A stretch of DNA of 64,000 bases from Mustelus asterias (Eukaryota): contig NC_135819.1 in assembly GCF_964213995.1 (NCBI RefSeq), forward strand, positions 46,438,001 to 46,502,000, given 5' to 3'. Positions 3,385 to 42,464 of the stretch are shown here, one piece after another; position 1 is the first letter of the stretch; each line of letters starts with the position of its first letter. The notes beneath the pieces are model-generated. The model was not told where the DNA came from and did no database searches. It saw only the letters and a program-made list of their open reading frames with translations. A program made the position numbers and the translations under genes.

Positions 3385-6300
3385 TGGAGCAAGCAGAGAG
3401 GGAGTGATCTGTGGCAGGAGTGCTGGTGAGAGATTTATTTATTTAGTCAATTAGTGTGTTTTTTTTGCCTTTATTTTTGTAGTAGTATTTTTCTTAATTT
3501 TAAACTGAAAACCGGAAGTGGGCTGCTAAGGAGTCTGGGAAGGGTTTTTTTAAGCGCGCAAAGTATAAAAGATAGGCTGTAGTATACAGCGGGCAGCGTC
3601 GGGAGCGGGCAGTGGAGTGAGCAGGGAGCAGAGTGTGAGCTATAAGGGCTTTGGCTCACAGGGCTTCGGGGGACAGGGCGAGCAGGGGTGAGTTTTTAAT
3701 TTCTTATTTACTTTTCTCGGTGTACCTTGGTATAAAGGGGCAAATATGAGTGTAAAGCCAGTGTGTTGTTCCCAGTGTAGGGTGTGGGAGGTCCTGGAGG
3801 CACCTGGCCTCCCGGACATCCACATCTGTGAGGGGTGTGTCGAGCTGCGGTTCCTGAGGGACCGTGTTAAGGAGCTGGAACTGCAGCTCGAGGATCTTAG
3901 GCTGTTAAGGGAGAATGAGGAGGTGATAGACAAGAGCTATCATCAGATGGTCACTCCAGGGCCACGGGTGGAGGCCAAGTGGGTGACGGCCAGGAAGGGT
4001 AAATCTCGGGTGATTGAGAGCACCCCGGTGGATGTGCCCCTACACAACAAGTACTCCTGCCTGAGTACTGCTGGGGGGGACAGCCCGCCTGGGGGAAGCA
4101 GCAGTGGCCATGTCTCCGGAGTGGAGTCCGGCCCTGTAACTCAGAGGGCTAAGGAAAAGAGGAGGAAGGTAGTGTTAATCGGGGACTCGACAGTAAGGGG
4201 GTCGGACAGGCGTTTTTGCGGAGGCAGGCGGGAGTCTCGGATGGTGGTCTGCCTCCCTGGGGCCAGGATCCAGGATGTCGCTGGTCGACTCCCAGAAATC
4301 CTGAGGGGGAGGGAGAGGAGCCAGAGGTAGCGGTACATATTGGTACCGCTGATGTGGGAAGGAAGGAGGAAGGGGGAATGGGTCATGAAAAGAGAGTATA
4401 GGGAATTAGGGAGACAGCTGAGAAGGAGGAAAGCAAAAGGTAGTAATCTCAGGATTGCTGCCTGTGCCACGGGAAGGTGAGGGCAGGAATGGAGTGAGGT
4501 GGAGGATGAATGTGTGGCTGAGGGACTGGTGCATGGGGCAGGGATTCAGGTTCCTGGACCACTGGGGCCTCTTTAGGGGCAGGTGTGACCTGTACACAAA
4601 AAACGGGTGGCACTTGAATCCCAGGGGGACCAATATCCTGGCAGGAAGATTGTCTAAGGCTACTGGGGAGAGTTTAAACTAGATAGGTTGGGGGGAGGGG
4701 ATTAAGACGAGGTGACTGGGAGCGAGGAAGTTAGCTCGCAAACAGAGAAGGGTTTTAGACGGTGCAAGAGGGAGGATGGACGGGGGATAGAGAAGGGGAG
4801 AACTCAGACCAAAGGATTGAGATGTGTTTACTTTAATGCCAGGAGTATAGTGAATAAAGGGGATGAGCTCAGAGCGTGGATTGATGCCTGGAAGTGTGAT
4901 GTGGTGGCCATTACGGAGACTTGGATGTCTCAGGGACAGGACTGGATACTACAGGTGCCGGGATTCAGATGTTTCAGGAAGGACAGGGAGGGAGGCAAGA
5001 GAGGAGGTGGAGTAGCACTGCTGATCAGGAATAGTGTCACAGCTGTAGAGAAGGTGTATGCTGTGGAGGGATTGTCTATAGAGTCTCTGTGGGTGGAAGT
5101 TCGGAGTGGGAAGGGGTCGATCACTTTGCTGGGAGTTTTCTATAGGCCGCCCAATAGTGACAGGCAGGTGGAGAAGCAGATAGGGAAACAGATCCTGGAG
5201 AGTTGCAATAATAGCAGAGTTGTTGTGATGGGAGACTTTAATTTCCCAAACATAGATTGGAATATCCCAAGGGTAAGGGGATTGGATGGGGAGGAGTTCG
5301 TTAGGTGTGTTCAGGAGGGTTTCCTGACACAGCATATGGACAAGCCTGCAAGAGGAGAGGCTTCACTTGATCTGATGCTGACCAATGAACCTGGACAGGT
5401 GTCAGATCTCTCAGTGGGAGAGCATCTTGGGGATAGTGATCATAACTCTATCTCCTTTATGCTTGCATTGGAAAAAGAGAGGATCAGGCAAGCTAAGAAA
5501 GCGTTTATATGGAGTAAGGGGAAATATGAAGACATGAGGCAGCAAATTAGAGGAGTAAATTGGAAGGAGGTATTCTCGGGGAAATCTACTGAAGAGAGGT
5601 GGACGTTTTTCAAGGAATGTCTGTCTAGGGTTCTACAGGACAATGTTCCAAGCAGACAGGGAGGAGTTGGTAGGTTAAAGGAACCGTGGTGCATGAAAGC
5701 TGTGCGGGACCTAGTCGAGAAGAAAAGGAAAGCGTGCAAAAGGTTCAGAGAGCTTGGCGAAGATAGGGATCTAGATGAGTATACGGCTTGTAGGAAGGGA
5801 CTAAAGAAGGAAATTAGGAGAGCCAGAAGGGGTCACAAGAAGGCCTTGGCAAGTAAAATTAAGGAAAACCCTAAGGCATTCTATAATTATGTGAAGAGTA
5901 AAAGGATGAGTCGTGAAGGAATAGGGCCTATAAAAGGTGAAGGCAGGAAAATCAGTACAGAACCAGTAGAAATGGCAGAGGTGCTTAATGAGTATTTTGC
6001 CTCGGTTTTCACAGAGGAGAAGGACATGGGTGGATGTACTGTGGGCTTGCGGTGGACTGAAAAGATTGAGTATGTGGACTTTAACAAAGAGGTTGTGCTG
6101 GAATCTTTGAATGGCATCAAGATAGATAAGTCGCCGGGTCCGGATGGGATGTACCCCAGGTTACTGTGGGAGGCGAGAGAAGAGATTGCAGAGCCTCTGG
6201 CGATGATCTTTGCGTCGTCGATGGAGACGGGAGAGGTGCCGGAGGATTGGAGGATTGCGGATGTGGTTCCTATTTTCAAGAAGGGGAATAGGGATAGCCC

Positions 6301-7630
6301 AGGAAATTACCGACCGGTGAGTCTAACCTCAGTGGTTGGTAAGCTGATGGAGAAGATCCTGAGGGTCAAGATTTATGAGCATTTAGAGAGGTTTAGTATG
6401 CTCAAGAATACTCAGCATGGCTTTGTCAAAGGCAGATCGTGCCTTACGAGCCTGGTGGAGTTCTTCGAAAATGTGACTAAACACATTGACAAAGGGAAAG
6501 CGATAGATGTGGTTTATATGGATTTTAGCAAGGCGTTCGATAAGGTCCCCCATGCAAGGCTTCTAGAAAAAGTGAGAGGGCATGGGATCCAAGGGGCTGC
6601 TGCCCTGTGGATCCAGAACTGGCTTGCCCAAAGGAGGCAGAGAGTGTGTATAGATGGGTCTTTTTCTAAATGGAGGTCAGTCACCAGTGGTGTGCCCCAG
6701 GGATCTGTTCTGGGACCCTGGCTTTTGTCATTTTCATAAATGACCTGGATGAGGAAGTGGAGGGATGGGTTGGTAAGTTTGCCGACGACACGAATGTTGG
6801 TGGGGTTGTGGATAGTCTGGAGGGATGTCAGAAGTTACAGAGGGACATAGATAGGATGCAAGACTGGGCGGAGAAGTGGCAGATGGACTTCAACCCAGAT
6901 AAATGCGTAGTGGTCCATTTTGGCAGGTCAAATGGGATGAAGGAGTACAATATAAAGGGAAAGACTCTTAGTACTGTAGAGGATCAGAAGGACCTTGGGG
7001 TCCGGGTCCATAGGACTCTAAAATCGGCCCTGCAGGTGGAGGAGGTGGTTAAGAAGGCGTATGGTGTGCTAGCCTTTATCAATCGAGGGATTGAGTTTAG
7101 GAGTCCGGGGATAATGATGCAGCTATATAAGACCCTCGTCAGACCCCACTTGGAGTACTGTGCTCAGTTCTGGTCGCCTCATTACAGGAAGGATGTGGAA
7201 AAGATTGAAAGGGTGCAGAGGCGATTTACAAGGATGTTGCCTGGATTGAGTGGCATGCCTTATGAGGGAGCTTGGTCTTTTCTCCTTGGAGAGACGTCGG
7301 ATGAGAGGAGACCTAATAGAGGTATATAAGATGTTGAGAGGCATGGACTCTCAGAGGCTTTTTCCCAGGGTGGAATTGGCTGCTGCGAGAGGACACAGGT
7401 TTAAGGTGCTGGGGTGTAGGTACAGGGGAAATGTTAGGGGGAAGTTTTTCACACAGAGGGTGGTGGGCGAGTGGTGGAGGCAAACTCAATAGGGTCTTTT
7501 AAGAGACTCCTGGATGAGTACATGGGACTTAATAGGATGGAGGGTTAGAGGAAGGACTAGAAGGTAGGGATATGTTCGGCACAACTTGTGGGGCCGAAAG
7601 GCCTGTTTTGTGCTGTAGTTTTCTATGTTT
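3385..7630 (+). mobile_element. Full-length CR1 (HER1-like) LINE, inactivated: 5'UTR, ORF1 (zinc finger/leucine zipper + SGNH esterase), ORF2 (APE endonuclease + RT)
   Basis: ORF1 3746-4682 is frameshifted (CSQC..HICEGC, IGDS, HIGT, GWHL). ORF2 runs from ~4682 with NARS, ETW, MGDFNFP, SDH, NYRPVSLTS, QHGF, DFSKAFDKV, GVPQGSVLGP, FADD, and is disrupted near 4703, 6720 and 7265. CR1 tail present; 5' boundary approximate. Confidence 0.95.
3509..3572 (+). promoter_or_regulatory. Candidate CR1 internal Pol II promoter motifs
   Basis: ETS-like ACCGGAAGT (~3511) and TATA-like GTATAAAAG (~3563) in the CR1 5'UTR; motif match only. Confidence 0.35.
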
Positions 7631-12936: not shown

Positions 12937-14080
12937 CTGTCAATAAATGTTAGAAAACAAAGATTACTGGAACTATATCAACAAATTCAAAATAACAATA
13001 CTGGAATCATATTTTTTCCTTAAACATCATCTTCACCATCAATTAATAAGCAAGCTAACGATTCACCCATTTTCACAAAACTTGATACACTCGAGTTCAA
13101 ACTTTGGAAGACAGGGTGAGCTTTACCTGCGGAGTTGTAACTTGTCCAACCAAATCTCAATAATTGAAAATAACAGATTTCTAAAAGGTTTTGGATTACA
13201 TTTTGCCCAAAAAGGTATCAAACATGTTTAAAGTGATGAGAATTTGAAGTAAAGTTTGGAAATAAATAAGAAATTGACTAGGCCAGTAATTTCACTCTTA
13301 TTTGGATTCAGAAACTTCAATGAGTAGAATAAGCATATATACTTCAGAATATCAAAGCATGAGAGGTGATCTCATTGAAACATATAATATTCTTGAATGG
13401 CTTGACAGGGTAGATGCTGAAAGGCTAATTTGATTAGCTGGGGAGTCAATTTCAGGATATTGGATCAGACATTTAGGACTGAGATAAAATTAAAAGGCTT
13501 CACAGTGTTGTAAATCTATGGAATTCTCTACCTCAGATATACAGGTGAGGAGTATATTCAAGACTGAAATTGATAGATCCTTGGGCATTAAAGGAAATCA
13601 AGAGTTATGGAGATAAAGGAGGAAATTTAAGCTAATGTCGAAGTTTAGCATGACCTTATTATGATGTTATATTCTTTAATGCATTGATTTGCAGACCTGA
13701 CAATATACTGTGACAGTAAAGTTAGACAAGACGACAGTGTACAAAATGAGCTAAATAATATACAATTAACAGAACAGTAAATGAAATTCAATTACATACT
13801 GCACATATTGGAAGGAAAAAAATAGGTGACAAGCATAATCCATGAATCAAACTAGGTCAGATGAAATTGCACAAGAATTCTGGGGTGTTAGTAGCCTCTT
13901 CATTTAGTTGACTCAGTCACAAGAGCAGCGAATAAGTAGAATGATGAAACATATGTTAAATACCATGCCCAGTTTCAGGCACAACCATTAAACCATCAAG
14001 CTCATTTCTGCTGTCAGTTTTGAGTCGTAACATAGCTTGAGAGAATCTTGCATTCTTGAAAGAAAATAATCAAGAAAATA

Positions 14081-16443
14081 ATCTTGGATCTGGTCCTGTG
14101 TAATGATGTGGAGATGCCGGCGTTGGACTGGGGTAATGAGACAGGTAAAATTAATGATCTTCTTGTGAGGGATCCTCTTGGAATGAGTGATCACAATATG
14201 GTTGAATTTCTAATACAAATGGAGGGTGAGAACGTAGGGTCCCAAACCAGTGTCCTCTGCTTGAACAGAGGGGAGTACAATAGGATGAGGGCAGAATTGG
14301 CTAATGTAGACTGGGAGCACAAACTAGTTGGTAGGACAGCTAAGCAACAGTGGCGGATTTTTAAGGAGATTTTTCTCAGTACTCAGCAAAAATATATTCC
14401 TGTGATGAAGAAGGAATGTAAGAAAAGGGATAACCAGCCGTGGATAACTAAGGAAATAAAGGAGAGTATTAAATTAAAAACCAATGCGTACAGAGTGGCC
14501 AAAACTAGTGGGGAATTAGAAGATTGGGAAAGCTTTAAAAAACAAAGAACTACTAAGAAAGTGATAAAGAAAGGAAAGATAGATTATGAAACTAAACTAG
14601 CACAAAATATAAAAACTGATAGTAAAAGTTTTTACAAATATCTAAAAAGGAAAAAAGTAGCTAAAGTAAGTGTTGGACCCTTAGAAGACGAGACGGGGGA
14701 TTTAATAATGGGAAACGAGGAAATGGCCGAGGCCTTAAACAAGTTTTTTGTGTTGGTCTTCACGGTAGAGGACACAAATAGCTTACCGAAAATTGATGGT
14801 CGTGGGACTGTAGGGAGTGAGGTCCTTAAAACAATTACTATTACTAAAGAGGTAGTGCGTGGTAGGCTAATGGGACTAAAGGCAGACAAGTCCCTGGGCC
14901 CGGATGGAATGCATCCCAGGGTACTGAAAGAAATGGCAGAAGTAATAGCAGATGCATTGGTTGTAATTTATCAAAATTCACTGGACTCTGGGGAAGTGCC
15001 GGCTGATTGGAAAACAGCTAATGTGACGCCACTGTTTAACAAAGGAGGTAGACAAAAGGCGGGTAACTACAGGCCGGTTAGCTTAACGTCCGTAGTTGGG
15101 AAATTGCTGGAATCCATCATTAAAGAAGAAAAAGCAGGACACCTGGACAAAAATGGTTCGATCAAGCAGACGCAGCATGGATTCATGAAGGGAAAGTCGT
15201 GTTTGACGAATTTACTGGATTTTTATGAAGATGTAACGAGGGCAGTTGACAGAGGGGAACCGGTGGATGTGGTGTTTTTGGATTTCCAGAAGGCGTTCGA
15301 TAAGGTGCCTCACAAAAGGTTGCTGCAGAAGATTAGGGTACATGGAGTTGGGGATAAAGTGTTAGCGTGGATTGAGGATTGGCTATCTAACAGGAAGCAG
15401 AGAGTTGGAATAAATGGGTGCTTTTCTGGTTGGCAGTTGGTGACTAGTGGCGTGCCGCAGGGATTGGTGCTGGGGCCTCAACTGTTTACCATATACATAG
15501 ATGATCTGGAGGAGGGGACTGAGTGTAGGGTAACAAAGTTTGCAGATGATACAAAGATGAGTGGGAAAGCGAATTGCATGGAGGATGCGGAAAGTCTGCA
15601 GAGAGATTTGGATAGGCTAATTGAGTGGGCGAGGATCTGGCAGATGGAGTATAACGTTCACAAGTGTGAGGTTATCTACTCTGGAAGGAATAATAGTAAA
15701 ATGGACTATTATTTAAATGGTGAAAAATTACAACATGCTACTGTGCATGAATCGCAAAAACTCAGTTTGCAGGTGATCAAGGCGGCAAATGGAATGTTGG
15801 CCTTTATCGCGAAGGGGGTGGAGTATAAAAGCAGGGAGGTCTTGCTGCAATTGTACAAGGTACTGGTGAGGCCACAACTAGAGTACTGTGTGCAATTTTG
15901 GTCCCCTTATTTGCGGAAGGATGTATTGGCCGAGGAGGGAGTATAGGGAAGATTCACCAGGTTGATACCGGAGATGAGGGGGTTAACTTATGAGGAGAGT
16001 TTGAGTAGATTGGGCCTGTACTCGTTGGAGTTTAGAAGGCTGAGGGGAGATCTTATAGAGACATATAAGATAATGAAGGGGCTAGATAGGGTAGAGGCAG
16101 AGAGATTCTTTCCACTTAGAAAGGAAACAAGAACTAGAGGACACAGCCTCAAAATAAGGGGGAGTCAGTTTTGGGCAGAGTTGAGGAGGAACTTCTTCTC
16201 TCAGAGGGTAGCGAATCTCTGGAATTCTCTGCCCATTGAAGCAGTGGAGGTTACCTCGTTAAATATGTTTAAGTCACAGGTAGATAGATTTTTGATCAAT
16301 AAGGGAACTAAGGGTTATGGTGAGCGGGCGGGTAAGTGAAACTAAACCACTATCAGATCAGCCATGATCTTATTGAATGGCGGGGCAGGCTCGAGGGGCT
16401 AGATGGCCTACTCCTGCCCCTATTTCTTATGTTCTTATGTAAG
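14081..16443 (+). mobile_element. CR1 LINE, 5'-truncated ORF2
   Basis: ORFs 14084-15946 and 15962-16339 cover the end of EN, RT and the C-terminus; closely related to 25790-28150. Confidence 0.95.
14107..14139 (-). mobile_element. Solo Penelope-like 3' tail micro-insertion
   Basis: Reverse complement of the ccccagtccaacgccggcatctccaca tail seen at 46241-46267; GTAATGA duplicated at 14100-14106 and 14133-14139; absent from the homologous CR1 position at ~25810. Confidence 0.85.
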
Positions 16444-23625: not shown

Positions 23626-23843
23626 GTTTCTCATCCACTTATATCTCTCCTTGAGACACCCAAAAACTCCACTCAAAACTCAATGTTTCTTCAACTGCAG
23701 AGCAAACAAAGGAGTCCCCCAAACTCAGTTTTCCAGTATCACCTCCATTAAATTGATCATTTTACTGAGGCCTATAACATTATCCAGTTAACCACTGTTC
23801 CACTAGCTTTGCAGTTTCTGAGAGCTTAAAATCCCTATCATCT

Positions 23844-26800
23844 TTTGAGGTTTTTTTAGTGCACGGGAGGTTTAAAAGGCAGTCCCCACTATCTAACAGG
23901 CAGCGTTGGGAGCGGGCAGCAGAGTGAGAGGGAGCTGAGTGAGAACTGAGGGACTTTGGCTCATCGGGCTTAGGCAGAAAGGGCGAGCAGGGGTGAATTT
24001 CTTATTTTTTTTATTTATTTCTAATTTACTTTTCTCTGTGTACCTTGGAAGAAAGGGTGAAATATGAGTGTTAAGCCAGTGTGGTGCTCGCAGTGCAGTA
24101 TGTGGGAGGTCCTGGAGGCACCTGGCCTCCCGGACATCCACATCTGTGAGGGGTGTGTCGAGCTGCGGTTCCTGAGGGCCCGTGTTAGGGAGCTGGAACT
24201 GCAGCTTGACGATCTTAGGCAGGTGAGGGAGAATGAGGAGGTGATAGACAAGAGCTATCATCAGGTGGTCACACCAGGGCCACGGGAGGAGGCCAAGTGG
24301 GTGACAGCCAGGAAGGGTAAAACACGGGTGATTGAGAGCACCCCGGTGGAAGTGCCCCTACATAACAAGTACTCCTGTCTGAGTACTGTTGGGGGGGGAC
24401 AGCCCATCTGGGGGAAGCAGCAGTGGCCGTGTCTCCGGGGTGGAGTCCGGCCCTGTAACTCAGAGGGCTAAGGAAAGGAGGAGGAAGGCGGTATTAATCA
24501 GGGACTCGACAGTCAGGGGGACGGACAGGCGATTTTGCGGAGGCAGGCAGGAGTCTCGCATGGTGGTCTGCCTCCCTGGGGCTGGGATCCAGGATGTCGC
24601 TGGGCAAGTCCCAGAAATCCTGAGGTGGGAGGGAGAGGAGCCGGAGGTAGCGGTACATATTGGTACCGCTGATGTGGGTAAGAAGGGGGAAGGGAACATG
24701 AAAAAAGAGTATAGGGAATTAGGGAGACAGCTGAGAAGGAGGAAAGCAAAGGTAGTAATCTCGGGATTGCTGCCTGTGCCACGGGAAGGTGAGGAAAGGA
24801 ATGGAGTGAGGTGGAGGATGAATGTGTGGCTGAGGGAATGGTGCATGGGGCAGGGTTTCAGGTTCCTGGACCATTGGGACCTCTTTAGGGGCAGGTGTGA
24901 CCTGTATACTAAAAACGGGTGGCACTTGAATCCCAGGGGGACCAATATCCTGGCAGGAAGGTTGGCTAAGGCTACTGGGGAGAGTTTAAACTAGATAGGT
25001 TGGGGGGAGGGGATCAAAGCGACGTGACTGAGAGTGAGGAAGGTAGCTCGCAAACAGAGAAGGGTTATAGGCAGTGCAAGAGGGCAGGTGGACTGGGAAC
25101 AGAGAAGGGGAGAGGTCAGACCATAGGATTGAGAGGTGTCTACTCTAATGCCAGGAGTATAGTGAATAAACAACTAGCTAAAGGAGGAGAGGGCTTGGGA
25201 GATGTTAGTAGTTCTTCAACAAACCGGGTCCAGATAAAGGCTGGCGTAAAGACACTTTGCCTGAATGCACGAAGCATTCGAAACAAAGTAAATGAGTTGA
25301 TGGCACAAATCCATACAAATGAATATGATCTAGTGTCCATCACAGAAACGTGGTTGCAGGGTGACCGGGACTGGGAACTGAATATACAGGGTTATCAGGC
25401 ATTTAGGAAGGATAGACAGGTTGAAAAAGGAGGTGGGGTAGCTTTGTTAATAAAGGATAATATCAGGACGGTAGTGAGAGACGACATAGGCTGTAAGGAG
25501 CAAAACGTGGAATCGTTGTGGGTGGAGAGAAGGAATAGTAGAGGGAGAAAGACACTGGTAGGTGTGGTCTATAGGCCCCCAAATAATAACTTAGAGGTGG
25601 GGAGGGCTATAAACAAGCAAATAATGGCTGCGTGCAAAAGTGGAACGGCAATAATCATGGGGGATTTTAACCTACATATTGATTGGTCGACTCAAATTGG
25701 ACGTGGAGGGCTTGAGGAAGAGTTCTTGGAATGCTGTCGGGATTGTTTCATTGAACAGTATGTTACAGAACCTACGAGAGAGCGAGCTATCTTGGATCTG
25801 GTTCTGTACAATGAGACAGGTAGGATTAAGGATCTTCTTGTGAAGGATCCTCTTGGGATGAGTGATCATAATATGGTGGAATTTCTGATACAGATGGAGG
25901 GTGAGAAAGTAGAGTCCCAAACCAGTGTCCTCTGCTTGAACAGAGGGGAGTACGATAGGATGAGGGTGGAATTGGCTAATGTAGACTGGGCGAGCAGACT
26001 GGTAGGTAGGACAGCTGAGGAACAGTGGAGGATTTTTAAGGAGATTTTTTTAAGTACTCAGCAAAAATATATTCCGGTGATAAAGAAGGACTGTAAGAAA
26101 AAGGATAACCGGATGTGGATAACGAAGGAAATAAAGGAGAGTATTAAAATAAAATCAGATGCGTACAGAGTGGCCAAAGATAGTGGAGAATTAGTGGATT
26201 GGGAAAGCTTTAAAGAAAAACAAAGGACGACTCAGAAAGAGATTAAGAAAGGAAAGATAGATTATGAAACTAAACTAGCTCAAAATATAAAAAATGATAG
26301 TAAAAGTTTTTACAAGTATATAAAAAGGAATAGAGTGGCTAGAGTGAATGTTGGACCCTTGGAAGATGAGAGGGGGGATTTAATAGTGGAAAACGAGGAA
26401 ATGGCTGAGACTTTAAATAAGTTCTTTGTGTCGGTCTTCACGGTGGAAGACACAAATAGTTTGCCGAATATTAGAGATCGAGAGTTGGTGGGAGGGGAGG
26501 TCCTTAATACAATTACTGTTACTAAGGAGGTGGTGCTTGGTAGACTAATAGGACTGAAGGTAGACAAGTCCCCGGGCCCGGATGGAATGCATCCCAGGGT
26601 ACTGAAAGAAATGGCTGAGGTAATAGCAGATGCGTTAGTAGTAATTTATCAAAATTCGCTGGACTCTGGGGTAGTGCCGGCTGACTGGAAAACAGCTACT
26701 GTTACACCGCTGTTTAAAAAAGGAAGTAGACAAAAGGCGGGTAACTACAGGCCGGTTAGCTTAACGTCCGTAGTTGGGAAGATGCTAGAGTCCATTATTA

Positions 26801-28153
26801 AAGAGGAAATAACAGAGCACCTGAACAAGAATGGTTCGATCAAGCAGACGCAGCATGGATTCATGAAGGGAAAGTCGTGTTTGATGAATCTACTGGACTT
26901 TTATGAAGATGTCACTAGTGCGGTTGACAGAGGGGAACCGGTGGATGTGGTGTTTTTAGATTTCCAGAAGGCGTTCGATAAGGTGCCTCACAAAAGGTTG
27001 CTGCAGAAGATTGGAGTACACGGAGTTAGGGGTAAGGTGTTGGCGTGGATTGGGGATTGGCTATCTAACAGGAAGCAGAGAGTTGGGATAAATGGGTGCT
27101 TTTCTGGTTGGCAGTTGGTGACCAGTGGCGTGCCGCAGGGATCGGTGCTGGGGCCTCAATTGTTTACCATTTACATAGATGATCTGGAGGAGGGGACTGA
27201 ATCTAGGGTATTCAAGTTTGCTGATGACACGAAGGTGAGTGGGAATGCGAATTGCGTGGAGGACGCGGAAAGTCTGCAGAGAGATTTGGATAGGCTGAGC
27301 GAGTGGGCGAGGATCTGGCAGATGGAATATAACGTTAGCAAATGTGAGGTTATCCACTTTGGAAGAAATAATAGTAAATTGGAATATTATTTAAATGGAG
27401 AAAAATTACATCGTGCGACTGTGCAGAGAGACCTGGGGGTCCTTGTGCACGAATCGCAAAAACTCAGTCTGCAGGTGCAGCAGGTGATCAAGGCGGCGAA
27501 TGGAATGTTGGCCTTTATCGCGAGGGGGATAGAATATAAAAGCAGGGAGGTCTTGCTGCAACTGTACAAGGCACTGGTGAGGCCGCAACTGGAGTACTGT
27601 GTGCAGTTTTGGTCCCCTTATTTGCGAAAGGATATATTGGCCTTGGAGGGAGTGCAGAGAAGGTTCACCAGGTTGATACCGGAGATGAGGGGTGTAGCTT
27701 ATGAGGAGAGATTAAACAGATTGGGTCTGTACTCGTTGGAGTTTAGAAGGATGAGGGGTGATCTTATAGAGACATATAAGATAATGAAGGGGCTGGATAG
27801 GGTAGAGGTGGAGAGATTCTTTCCACTTAGAAGGGAAACCAGAACTAGAGGGCACAGCCTCAAAATAAGGGGGGGGCGGTTCAGAACAGAGTTGAGGGGG
27901 AACAACTTCTCTCAGAGGGTAGTGAATCTCTAGAATTCTCTGCCCATTGAAGTGGTGGAGGCTTCCTCGTTGAATATGTTTAAATCACGGGTAGATCGTT
28001 TTCTGATCGATAAGGGAATTAGGGGATATGGGGAGCAGGCGGGTAAGTGGAACTGATTCGCTTCAGATCAGCCATGATCTTGTTGAATGGCGGGGCAGGC
28101 TCGAAGGGCCAGATGGCCTACTCCTGCTCCTATTTCTTATGTTCTTATGTTCT
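23844..28153 (+). mobile_element. Near-intact chimeric full-length CR1 LINE
   Basis: ORF1 24064-24994 has one frameshift in a G8 run; ORF2 is open for 977 aa (EN+RT) until TGG>TAG at 27931; cttatgttcttatgttct tail. Confidence 0.96.
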
Positions 28154-31440: not shown

Positions 31441-31860
31441 GTGAAAAATACAATTACACATGAAGAATAGTCATTTTTAACATCCATGTGATGTACTTCA
31501 GTATGAATCATGCAAACATCAAAACAACATTTAAACTAGCCTTTTAAGTTATGGATCAGTGTTTTAAATGTGGGGGAAGTCGTTGCCAAATTTGAGTTTT
31601 TGGATGAGGGCAATGCTGTTGATATGTTGGGTGTGACCTGGGTGTGTGCGTACACAAATCACTGAAGGTTCCAGGACAAATTGAGTGAATAGGTAATAAA
31701 GCATATGGCATCCTGGGCTTTAAAAATGGGCATATAGTACAAAAGCAAGAAAGTTATGTTAAACATGTACAAAACACTGTAGCCAAGTAAAAGCAAATTT
31801 CAGATACATAATGAAATATGGAATGAAGCAGCAAAGGGCAATAATCCAAAAGATATTTAC

Positions 31861-40190: not shown

Positions 40191-41493
40191 GTAATGTACC
40201 CACAGCGTGTAATGTGGGTACCTTAGCAACATGGGAAATTATAATGAGGAAGTAAGGAAATGCGAGTGACAATTTATACATTGCATCTGTCTTTATGGTA
40301 GAAGAGAAAAGCATTTAAGAAGTAGTGGGTAAGCGAGGGTCTGTGAAATGAAAAACTTAAAGATGTAAGTTTTGTAAAGAAATAGCATTGGAAGAAAAAA
40401 GCCAATAAGTCCCCTAAAACTCATTACATAGACATGTAAAAAAGTTGATTGCAGAGATGGCTAATGTATTGGTGTTGAGCATCCAGAAGTCCCTAGATTC
40501 TTAAATGGCCCCCATGGATTGATGGGTAGAAAGCATAACCTCACTGTTCAAGAAAGGAGAGAGAAAACATGGGACTACAGACAGTAGGAATAAATGGATC
40601 ATTTTCAGGTTGGCAAGCTACAACCTGTGCCGGGTGGTGGGGGGGGGAACACCGCCGTGAGGAAAACTGAGATATAATCGGCCTGACATCAATATCAGGG
40701 GAAAATGCCAGAATCTGTTATTAAGGACCTGATAACAGAGCACTCAGAAAACCATGATATGAATGGACAGAGTCAATATGGATTTATAAAAGTGACATCT
40801 TGCTTGACAGATCTGTTACAACTTTTGCAACTAGTGGGGGGAGATAAGGGAAACCCATAGATGTAGTCTATTTGGATTTTCAAAAGCATTCAATAAGCAC
40901 AAGTGGTTATTACGCCAAATTAGGGTTTGTGGGATTGGGGGTCATTTTTATTAGCACGGACTGAGGATTGGTTAGAAAACACAGCAAGAATAAATAGATC
41001 ATTTTTGGATCTGCAAGCAGCAACTAGTGAGATACTACAAAGATCATGCTTGGAACTCAGTTATTTATAATTTAAATCAATGACTTAGGTGAGAGATGGC
41101 ATGTAACAAATCTAAGTTAGGTGGTAAAGTAAACTGTAAATAGAATGCAAAGTGGCTGCAAAAGGATTTAGATGGATTAAGTGAGTAGGCAAGAACATGG
41201 TAGATGGACTACAATGTGGGTGAATGTGAGGTTATCCAATTTTCTAAAAAGAGAGAGACTAGAAAATGCTGATACAAGGACATGGGGTCATCGTAAAACA
41301 AAAATCACCAAAATTAGCATACAAATATAGCAAAGAATTAGGAAAGCAAAATGATATGTTAATCCATTATTAATAAAGGAAGTGGAGTACAAGAGTAAAG
41401 AAGTCTCGCAGCAGTGGTATAAGGCTTTGGTTAGACCACACCACTGTATACAGTTTTCATCTCCTTACCTCAAGAAAAATAAGGAAAGTGAGT

Positions 41494-42464
41494 GGACCTC
41501 TGCTGTTTGTGATTTATATAAATGATCTGGAAGAAGGTGTAACTGGGGTGATCAGTAAGTTTGCAGACGACACAAAATTGGCAGGACTTGCAGATAGCGA
41601 GGAGCATTGTCAGAAGCTACAGAAGGATATAGATAGGCTGGAAATTTGGGCAAAGAAATGGCAGATGGAGTTCAATCCTGATAAATGCGAAGTGATGCAT
41701 TTTGGTAGAAATAATGTAGGGAGGAGCTATACGATAAATGGCAGAACCATAAAGGGTGTAGATACGCAGAGGGACCTGGGTGTGCAAGTCCACAGATCCT
41801 TGAAGGTGATGTCACAGGTGGAGAAGGTGGTGAAGAAGGCACATGGCATGCTTGCCTTTATAGGACAGGGCATAGAGTATAAAAGTTGGGGTCTGATGTT
41901 GCAGATGTATAGAACGTTGGTTCGGCCGCATTTGGAATACTGCGTCCAGTTCTGGTCGCCACACTACCAGAAGGACGTGGAGGCTTTGGAGAGAGTACAG
42001 AGGAGGTTTACCAGGATGTTGCCTGGTATAGAGGGGCTTAGTTATGAGGAGAGATTGGGTAAACTGGGGTTGTTGTCCCTGGAAAGATGGAGGATGAGGG
42101 GAGACTTAATAGAGGTGTATAAAATTATGAAAGGCATAGATAGGGTGAACGGTGGGAAGCTTTTCCCCAGGTCGGTGGTGACGTTCACGAGGGGTCATAG
42201 GCTCAAGGTGAAGGGGGGGGGGGGAAGGTTTAACACAGATATCAGAAGGACATATTTTACACAGAGGGTGGTGGGGGCCTGAAATGCGCTGCCAGGCAAG
42301 GTGGTGGAGGCGGACACACTGGGAACGTTTAAGACTTATCTAGATAGCCATATGAACGGAGTGGGAATGGAGGGATACAAAAGAATGGTCTAGTTTGGAC
42401 CAGGGAGCGGCACGGGCTTGGAGGGCCGAAGGGCCTGTTCCTGTGCTGTATTGTTCTTTGTTCT
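41494..42464 (+). mobile_element. Young CR1 3' fragment
   Basis: GPLLFVIYINDL, FADD, LEYCVQFWSP; ttgttctttgttct tail. Confidence 0.93.

Follow-up and report, generated by a model that had tools for sequence, protein, structure and literature searches.

Programmed −1 ribosomal frameshifting is the best reading of the junction between ORF1 and ORF2 of CR1 LINEs, and we give it a probability of about 0.8. The junction carries a compact cassette, made up of a slippery heptamer, a stop codon, a 7-base spacer and a G-rich motif, at which ribosomes would slip one base back. The arrangement, the phase and the conservation of this cassette, together with the open linker lacking AUG behind it, are seen directly in the DNA, and they point to a real, deeply conserved element of the recoding type. 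The copy described here lies in a window of 64,000 nucleotides, that is, the whole stretch of DNA that was analysed. The original prediction, namely that −1 frameshifting joins ORF1 and ORF2 into a fusion, finds its support in comparative sequence: heptamer, phase and open linker are all conserved.

Among LINEs, it is only for L1 and SART1 that the way in which the second gene is translated has been settled, and CR1 is a widespread vertebrate LINE and the dominant one in most vertebrates. If the frameshifting reading is true, the strategy of gag-pol is shared by the retrotransposon that is most abundant in birds, reptiles and sharks, the CR1 replication enzyme carries a membrane-binding esterase, host control could act at the shift, and ORF2 annotations begun at the first AUG lose endonuclease motif I. 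Moreover, the G motif would represent a novel type of natural stimulator.

In the proposed mechanism, most ribosomes would stop and release the 309-aa ORF1 protein, while in a minority the Leu- and Asn-tRNA on UUA AAC would re-pair on UUU AAA and the ribosome would read on into the linker. The predicted product is an ORF1–ORF2 fusion of about 1330 residues in unbroken members, with Ser-Leu-Asn and then Leu-Asp-Arg at the junction, and its purpose would be a control of product ratio like that of gag-pol. The least secure step concerns the pause, which would come from the adjoining stop and from the G motif as unpaired RNA, probably via a bound protein; a hairpin or pseudoknot is not favoured as its source.

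The junction and the CR1 copy around it

The features of the copy, and of a second copy in the window, are the following.

23840–24063, + strand: 5′ UTR of the CR1 copy, 5′-truncated; the match to sister copies L002 and L011 starts near 23840, and the edge is approximate
24064–24994, + strand: ORF1, with a Cys-rich N-terminus, a coiled-coil-like part (judged by eye) and an SGNH esterase (PF13472, E 6.7e-11)
24967–24969, + strand: TAA closing the ORF2 frame, with 5 open codons between it and the heptamer, which rules out an upstream AUG start
24985–24991, + strand: slippery heptamer U_UUA_AAC in X XXY YYZ phase, the last 7 bases of ORF1
24991–25146, + strand: open linker in the −1 frame, without AUG, from the shift site to the first endonuclease motif I
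24992–24994, + strand: ORF1 stop adjoining the heptamer, TAG here and TAA or TGA in other lineages
24995–25001, + strand: 7-base spacer, fixed in length and variable in sequence (per-position counts over 26 groups)
25002–25012, + strand: G5-N2-G3 motif starting at +11 after the heptamer, a candidate 3′ stimulator
25147–25170, + strand: first (stranded) endonuclease motif I, the end of the part from the 'GESLN' lineage
25171–25263, + strand: in-frame recombination seam, from 25218 onward 89–91% like the linker end of the 'RALN' lineage (L231–L233)
25264–27933, + strand: ORF2 body with the second motif I, APE endonuclease and reverse transcriptase
28057–28152, + strand: 3′ UTR with a short doubled repeat at its end, without poly(A)
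4673–4700, + strand: second CR1 copy with the same cassette (heptamer at 4673–4679, TAG, spacer, G motif), a non-recombinant relative

The predicted layout held when the sequence was re-read: TTTAAAC at 24985–24991 stands in X XXY YYZ phase directly before TAG at 24992–24994, the ORF1 frame at 24983–24994 being AGT TTA AAC TAG, so that the 0-frame heptamer expected of a programmed −1 site is present. A slip of one base gives TTT AAA CTA GAT AGG TTG GGG, which was verified to be the long ORF2 frame; that is to say, an open −1 frame overlaps the heptamer and runs into a functional domain, as programmed sites also have it. Between its stops this frame measures 987 codons, and counted from the heptamer 982; the 977 aa given for it earlier is correct as to a long frame, the figure being a count from the TTG at 25000. 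Its first in-frame AUG is at 25300, and the other four ATGs in 24900–25300 are out of frame. The placing of that AUG past the NARS motif I stands as well, with the amendment that there are two such motifs (25147 and 25264), both of them upstream of the AUG. By itself TTTAAAC is not rare, with 27 occurrences in the window on the two strands together; its place, phase and conservation exceed chance. A third TTTAAACTAG in the window (31530–31539) has neither G motif nor ORF context and is taken as chance.

The element spans about 23840–28152 and, from its sequence, is a canonical CR1 LINE with an esterase ORF1, an ORF2 of APE and reverse transcriptase, and 3′ repeats without poly(A). Its 5′ UTR (23840–24063) also aligns to the second CR1 copy in the window, and the doubled 8-base unit at 28137–28152 is common to the sister copies L237 and L238. 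The genome around the window is that of an animal and measures 3.68 Gb. The closest relatives of the element's ORF1 are shark and ray proteins, and homologues of the esterase ORF1 are found in sharks, rays, frogs, turtles and lizards. ORF2 matches PF03372, PF14529 and PF00078, and the PF03372 endonuclease match starts at codon 99 (25264), which places the AUG at 25300 12 codons inside the endonuclease. When the endonuclease was searched against PDB as a single sequence no match was obtained, and a profile of eight such domains matched L1 endonuclease structures from motif I onward. The Asn of NARS motif I is catalytic.

The window copy is broken: its ORF1, beginning with ATG at 24064, is frameshifted in the G run at 24391–24398, and its ORF2 has a premature stop at 27931–27933, 41 codons earlier than in sister copies. 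In unbroken sisters ORF1 encodes 309 aa; in L237 and L238, which have such an ORF1, the −1 frame is open for 1023 and 1024 codons, respectively. Thirty sister loci, drawn from the 40 that were scored among 2635 candidates in the genome, all keep the heptamer (30/30), with TAG as the stop in 29 and TAA in one, and the full 310-codon ORF1 frame is open in 8 of the 30.

The family itself has, from its sequence identities, arisen as a recombinant of two CR1 lineages in which motif I was duplicated. The part at 24085–25170 is 92% like the second window copy and 80–86% like L229, L230, L239 and L242, and from 25218 onward the copy is 89–91% like L231–L233. At the seam 117 bases have been gained without a change of frame, and the two NARS motifs are left behind. 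That the family kept the frame over it speaks for frameshifting, though by itself this is one chance in three. L001–L030, L237 and L238 make up a young high-copy family in which the two lineages are joined in frame just past motif I (25147–25270). Elsewhere in the window, 3590–7630, the range around the cassette at 4673–4700, holds a CR1-type copy, broken and with the full cassette, and 14060–16339 and 41377–42282 hold CR1-type copies that match the reverse transcriptase only, no motif I being seen in them.

Conservation of the heptamer in genes and proteins

The junction set was composed of genome searches (G000) with five divergent ORF1 proteins, 60 unselected 10-kb stretches and metagenome contigs, the last giving 35 loci of which 10 extend past the junction. 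The ORF1 tails of these contigs are 35–50% like lizard and turtle proteins (sauropsid-type), and we take their CR1 ORF1s to be bird-like. Each junction was placed by the position expected from the esterase His motif, the ORF1 queries having been shortened by their last 11 residues, and 156 raw calls became 119 after 37 had been dropped (31 duplicates and 6 locus ends). The exact heptamer is present in 111 of the 119, from the shark-type genome and the sauropsid-type contigs; 118 have at most one mismatch, and the remaining miss looks like a false call. In 108 of the 119 calls the heptamer lies no more than 3 bases from the predicted place. Most of these junctions are young copies of six groups, and therefore the unselected sample matters: among the 60 unselected stretches, seven of nine complete junctions are exact and two have one change.

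In the codon test, 16 groups with an open ORF1 end were compared, one of which duplicates another, and 12 of the 28 groups were left out as having no open end. The last Leu of ORF1 is TTA in 16/16 groups and the Asn is AAC in 15/16, and the codon before TTA has T as its third base in 16/16, though the preceding residue varies. Against the ORF1 background, in which TTA makes up 10% of Leu codons, AAC 31% and a third-base T 23%, the joint expectation is 0.7%. The Leu at −22, which is equally invariant, uses four codons; the His at −23 has the single codon CAC in 13/13, and therefore descent alone can fix one codon. Around the constant heptamer the stop (TAG, TAA, TGA), the preceding residue and the length of the linker all vary, and it is the synonymous positions of the heptamer, as in programmed −1 sites, that are conserved. 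On the ORF1 tree, from which 14 groups were left out as broken, 12 lineages are 24–78% identical in the esterase domain, with a median of 33%. The lineages share ancestry, and the junction counts overstate their independence. The conservation of heptamer and phase across CR1 families, on which the prediction had been staked, thus holds at a median ORF1 identity of 33%, with an open −1 linker; the check in named CR1 consensus sequences likewise gave a conserved heptamer, from sharks to crocodilians.

This check was made in the consensus table of PMC13343379, where 18 of 23 motif matches are ORF1 ends as read from their context. The search appears to have covered about the first 400 characters per row, so these figures form a lower bound and give no rate. 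The rows with the heptamer belong to sharks, rays, chimaera, bowfin, coelacanth, frog, lizard and crocodilians (species taken from the abbreviations). The row AldAff_Crack-2, a 'Crack' consensus, has an esterase-type ORF1 end, the heptamer and the stop but lacks the G motif, and may be a CR1 under the wrong name. In the supplement available for PMC4316615, the search gave matches only near the 3′ end of ORF2.

The same pattern is visible in proteins. ORF1 proteins of sharks, rays, Hyla, Xenopus, turtles, Podarcis and Varanus end with LN, 23 residues past the catalytic His. Among 161 complete esterase ORF1 tails 111 end with N, namely 95 in LN, 9 in QGN, 1 in KN and 6 in other ways. The residues K, E, Q, M and W, whose codons never end in U, precede LN in 1 of 80 distinct ends, compared with 17.6% nearby (P 3e-6; the lineages are not independent, so this P makes the significance too strong). 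LN, GN and KN are the residues encoded by U_UUA_AAC, G_GGA_AAC and A_AAA_AAC, which are listed among the most shift-prone heptamers in the available part of PMC5009743. Ends in QGN or KN belong to distant esterase ORF1s (P0165, P0173, P0177–P0180, P0183, P0218, P0244 and P0196), and we predict that the DNA of the QGN group would show G_GGA_AAC, which its end fits. This DNA was not found in viral or prokaryote contigs, and the viral contigs also gave no shark-type ORF1.

Teleost-named esterase ORF1s, which are taken as L2-type, have ends other than LN, and therefore LN is not needed for the fold. Those observed (P0080–P0116) mostly have T, P, I or V as their last residue; for each of these there is a codon with A in third place, and such ends would fit an AUGA stop-start overlap in a sister clade. 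In addition, public databases contain CR1 ORF1 under three misleading names (P0038, P0046, P0098): as a Pseudomonas aeruginosa hydrolase, which is likely contamination, and within the sawfish S24 and Komodo WDR87 models, which are likely mis-annotation.

The linker, its start codons and rival readings

Behind the stop, the linker is 110 to 290 bases long across groups, and in each of the five groups with at least 8 copies the commonest length keeps the −1 phase. In four of them 25/27, 21/23, 9/13 and 4/5 scorable copies are in this phase. In the fifth, a young group whose linker has an AUG, it is 15 of 25 copies and the G run varies. Several old unselected copies are out of −1 phase. The young group (L051–L075) is a very young one in which a long variable G run shifts the phase of ORF2 in 10 of 25 copies, and its AUG stands 23 codons before motif I. 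One of its copies, L057 (G000:C71:6613369-6617283), has lost the ORF1 stop and by its G-run length fuses ORF1 and ORF2 into an open frame of 1280 codons; as a single copy it is likely a post-insertion change or an assembly error. A search for naturally fused forms gave one unrelated match of 571 aa among 8000 scored candidates, which is weak evidence.

Over 15 groups, and counting −1-phase copies only, stops in the linker number 1 in 889 codons of the −1 frame as compared with 53 in 829 and 68 in 844 in the other two frames. The −1 linker is nearly without stops, and it is therefore translated from close to the heptamer. It contains no Met at all in 7 of the 15 groups (6 distinct). The original statement that ORF2 has no usable AUG thus applies to the window family and six other groups of the 15, and not to all CR1. 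No start codon just 3′ of the stop is common to all groups: in the window family the near-cognate codons AGG and TTG (25000) follow the stop, in the L196 group no start-like codon does so, and 5 of 12 lineages, which lie dispersed over the ORF1 tree, have an in-frame AUG within the first codons. Two of the 12 have an overlapping UAAUG, which is absent in the window family, and two more groups have an AUG further down the linker.

These start codons permit a second route, in which frameshifting is ancestral and some lineages have added reinitiation at an AUG, giving fused as well as free ORF2. We hold this to be rather unlikely, and its share of probability overlaps with that of the best explanation. 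The AUG-bearing lineages lie in both the shark-type and the sauropsid-type branches and keep the heptamer, as such a double route would have it. However, the ancestral spacer has a T/G pattern from which ATG easily arises, and within one lineage the position after the stop alternates between ATG and ACG.

If reinitiation were the whole mechanism, ORF2 would be a separate protein, translated after termination from an AUG, or from a near-cognate codon, next to the stop, with the G motif holding the ribosomes there. SART1 and L1 are reported to work in this way (PMC2881922 and PMC3708506, in the parts available), and an open linker would be required here as well. The AUGs of the five lineages, those beside the stop in some published consensus sequences, and the TTG of the window family would all serve it. 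What it leaves unexplained are the seven fixed bases upstream of the stop, three synonymous positions among them, and the keeping of the heptamer in the very lineages that have an AUG. The AUG state also needs 3 changes on the tree, and lineages such as the L196 group offer no start-like codon past the stop. Calicivirus reinitiation makes use of an upstream UGGGA motif; no constant UGGGA exists here, it being missing from many groups. Since reinitiation accounts for the open linker but leaves the fixation of synonymous bases before the stop unexplained, frameshifting is preferred; reinitiation as the sole route is judged improbable.

Lower still stands the view that the heptamer is kept for some other reason, either for the C-terminal Leu-Asn of the esterase or as a DNA or RNA signal (splicing, protein binding), with ORF2 made from a spliced or internally started RNA. 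LN is indeed the commonest ORF1 end, and G tracts are known splicing elements in the literature available in part. Nevertheless, a need of the protein cannot fix synonymous bases, the teleost-named esterases do without LN, and a start codon before motif I would still be needed, which is missing in 7 of the 15 groups, so this view is very improbable. Three joints in assembled contigs are without splice ends and have no bearing on expression or splicing. Finally, passive inheritance of a common AT-rich heptamer, for which the 27 occurrences in the window might speak, has a negligible probability, being contradicted by the junction counts, the codon fixation, the published consensus sequences and the keeping of one position at a median ORF1 identity of 33% while neighbouring codons drift.

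The G motif and comparison with known systems

Under the frameshifting reading, the candidate stimulator is the G motif. G occupies +11 to +15 in 24, 26, 23, 23 and 22 of 26 groups and +18 to +20 in 22, 25 and 21 of them, third codon positions included, while elsewhere in ORF2 G makes up 32% of third positions. In 27 of 30 representatives the first base of the motif lies at +9 to +12, the background elsewhere being 37 in 84,788 bases. Of the G-rich tract proposed earlier as a stimulator, seen at 24998–25012, the conserved part begins at +11 (25002) rather than +7; its fixed place is conserved, and as a stimulator it is a candidate in which no shared structure was seen.

Several kinds of structure were looked for. 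Folding of the 30 representatives, by a scan covering structures other than pseudoknots, gave a z below −2 in 2/30 and no shared helix, and no structured 3′ stimulator at the usual 5–9 bases is conserved among them. A local hairpin is rejected, there being no common fold. Long-range pairing with ORF2 or the 3′ UTR had its best partners at unrelated places in a short-duplex scan. A universal G-quadruplex is rejected too, for the three-tier pattern occurs in 2 of 26 groups and the two-tier pattern in 13 of 26, which makes it impossible in half. Rfam gave nothing at gathering level, and one weak snoRNA match below it is taken as chance. What is present is a motif that is short, conserved and without structure, about 11 bases beyond the site on its 3′ side, such as defines an arterivirus-type signal, and the preferred reading of the stimulator is a G motif that would be bound by a protein. 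Candidates for this protein are binders of G tracts such as hnRNP F/H, and also the ORF1 protein.

A wider proposal, tentative as a whole, can be put forward: the cassette that yields the esterase–endonuclease–RT fusion would be ancient and driven, without RNA structure, by a protein on the +11 G motif, a G-rich mirror of the arterivirus signal, and distant relatives would have swapped the heptamer for G_GGA_AAC and retained the rest of the design.

No report of CR1 frameshifting was met with in the literature searched, the first descriptions of CR1 from chicken and turtle, and Repbase, lying outside it; the available parts of PMC11835228, PMC5006619, PMC3905857 and PMC4120745 do not report it, and that of PMC5009743 does not mention CR1. 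As far as searched, frameshifting is therefore new for the CR1 clade, with a precedent in the Dictyostelium TREs. The vertebrate canonical CR1 LINEs of PMC13343379 share with our element, in the part of that source available, the esterase ORF1, the ORF2 of APE and RT, the lack of poly(A) and the same junction. The words frameshift, overlap, start codon and translation do not occur in its available main text; the cassette is contained in its data and is left undescribed there.

Among non-LTR elements, TRE5-A and TRE3-A of Dictyostelium need a −1 frameshift for ORF2 according to the available part of the review PMC5911963, and like CR1 they are of APE type. They belong to another clade, have another ORF1 and carry no known G motif. 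SART1 and L1 resemble CR1 in having a bicistronic LINE RNA and an ORF2 dependent on the translation of ORF1, and two CR1 lineages possess the UAAUG overlap; the window family differs in that it has no stop-start overlap, no AUG before motif I and fixed bases upstream of the stop.

Coronaviral and retroviral −1 sites use the same U_UUA_AAC, one of the most shift-prone in mammalian ribosomes (PMC5009743, as available), and carry a pseudoknot or hairpin 5–9 bases downstream (PMC7618472, as available), whereas CR1 has no conserved structure and has a stop directly after the heptamer. Published G-quadruplex stimulators are three-tiered and lie at 6–8 bases (PMC3919603), and natural ones are not known according to PMC5009743, both in the parts available. 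The nearest likeness is that to the arterivirus nsp2 frameshift, in which CCCANCUCC, unstructured and 11 bases 3′ of the site, is bound by nsp1beta/PCBP (available parts of PMC5009743 and PMC7618472). The spacing is the same, the two-part G motif of CR1 starting at +11, but the CR1 motif is G-rich and the arterivirus motif C-rich, the heptamers differ, and the binder in CR1 is a presumed one.
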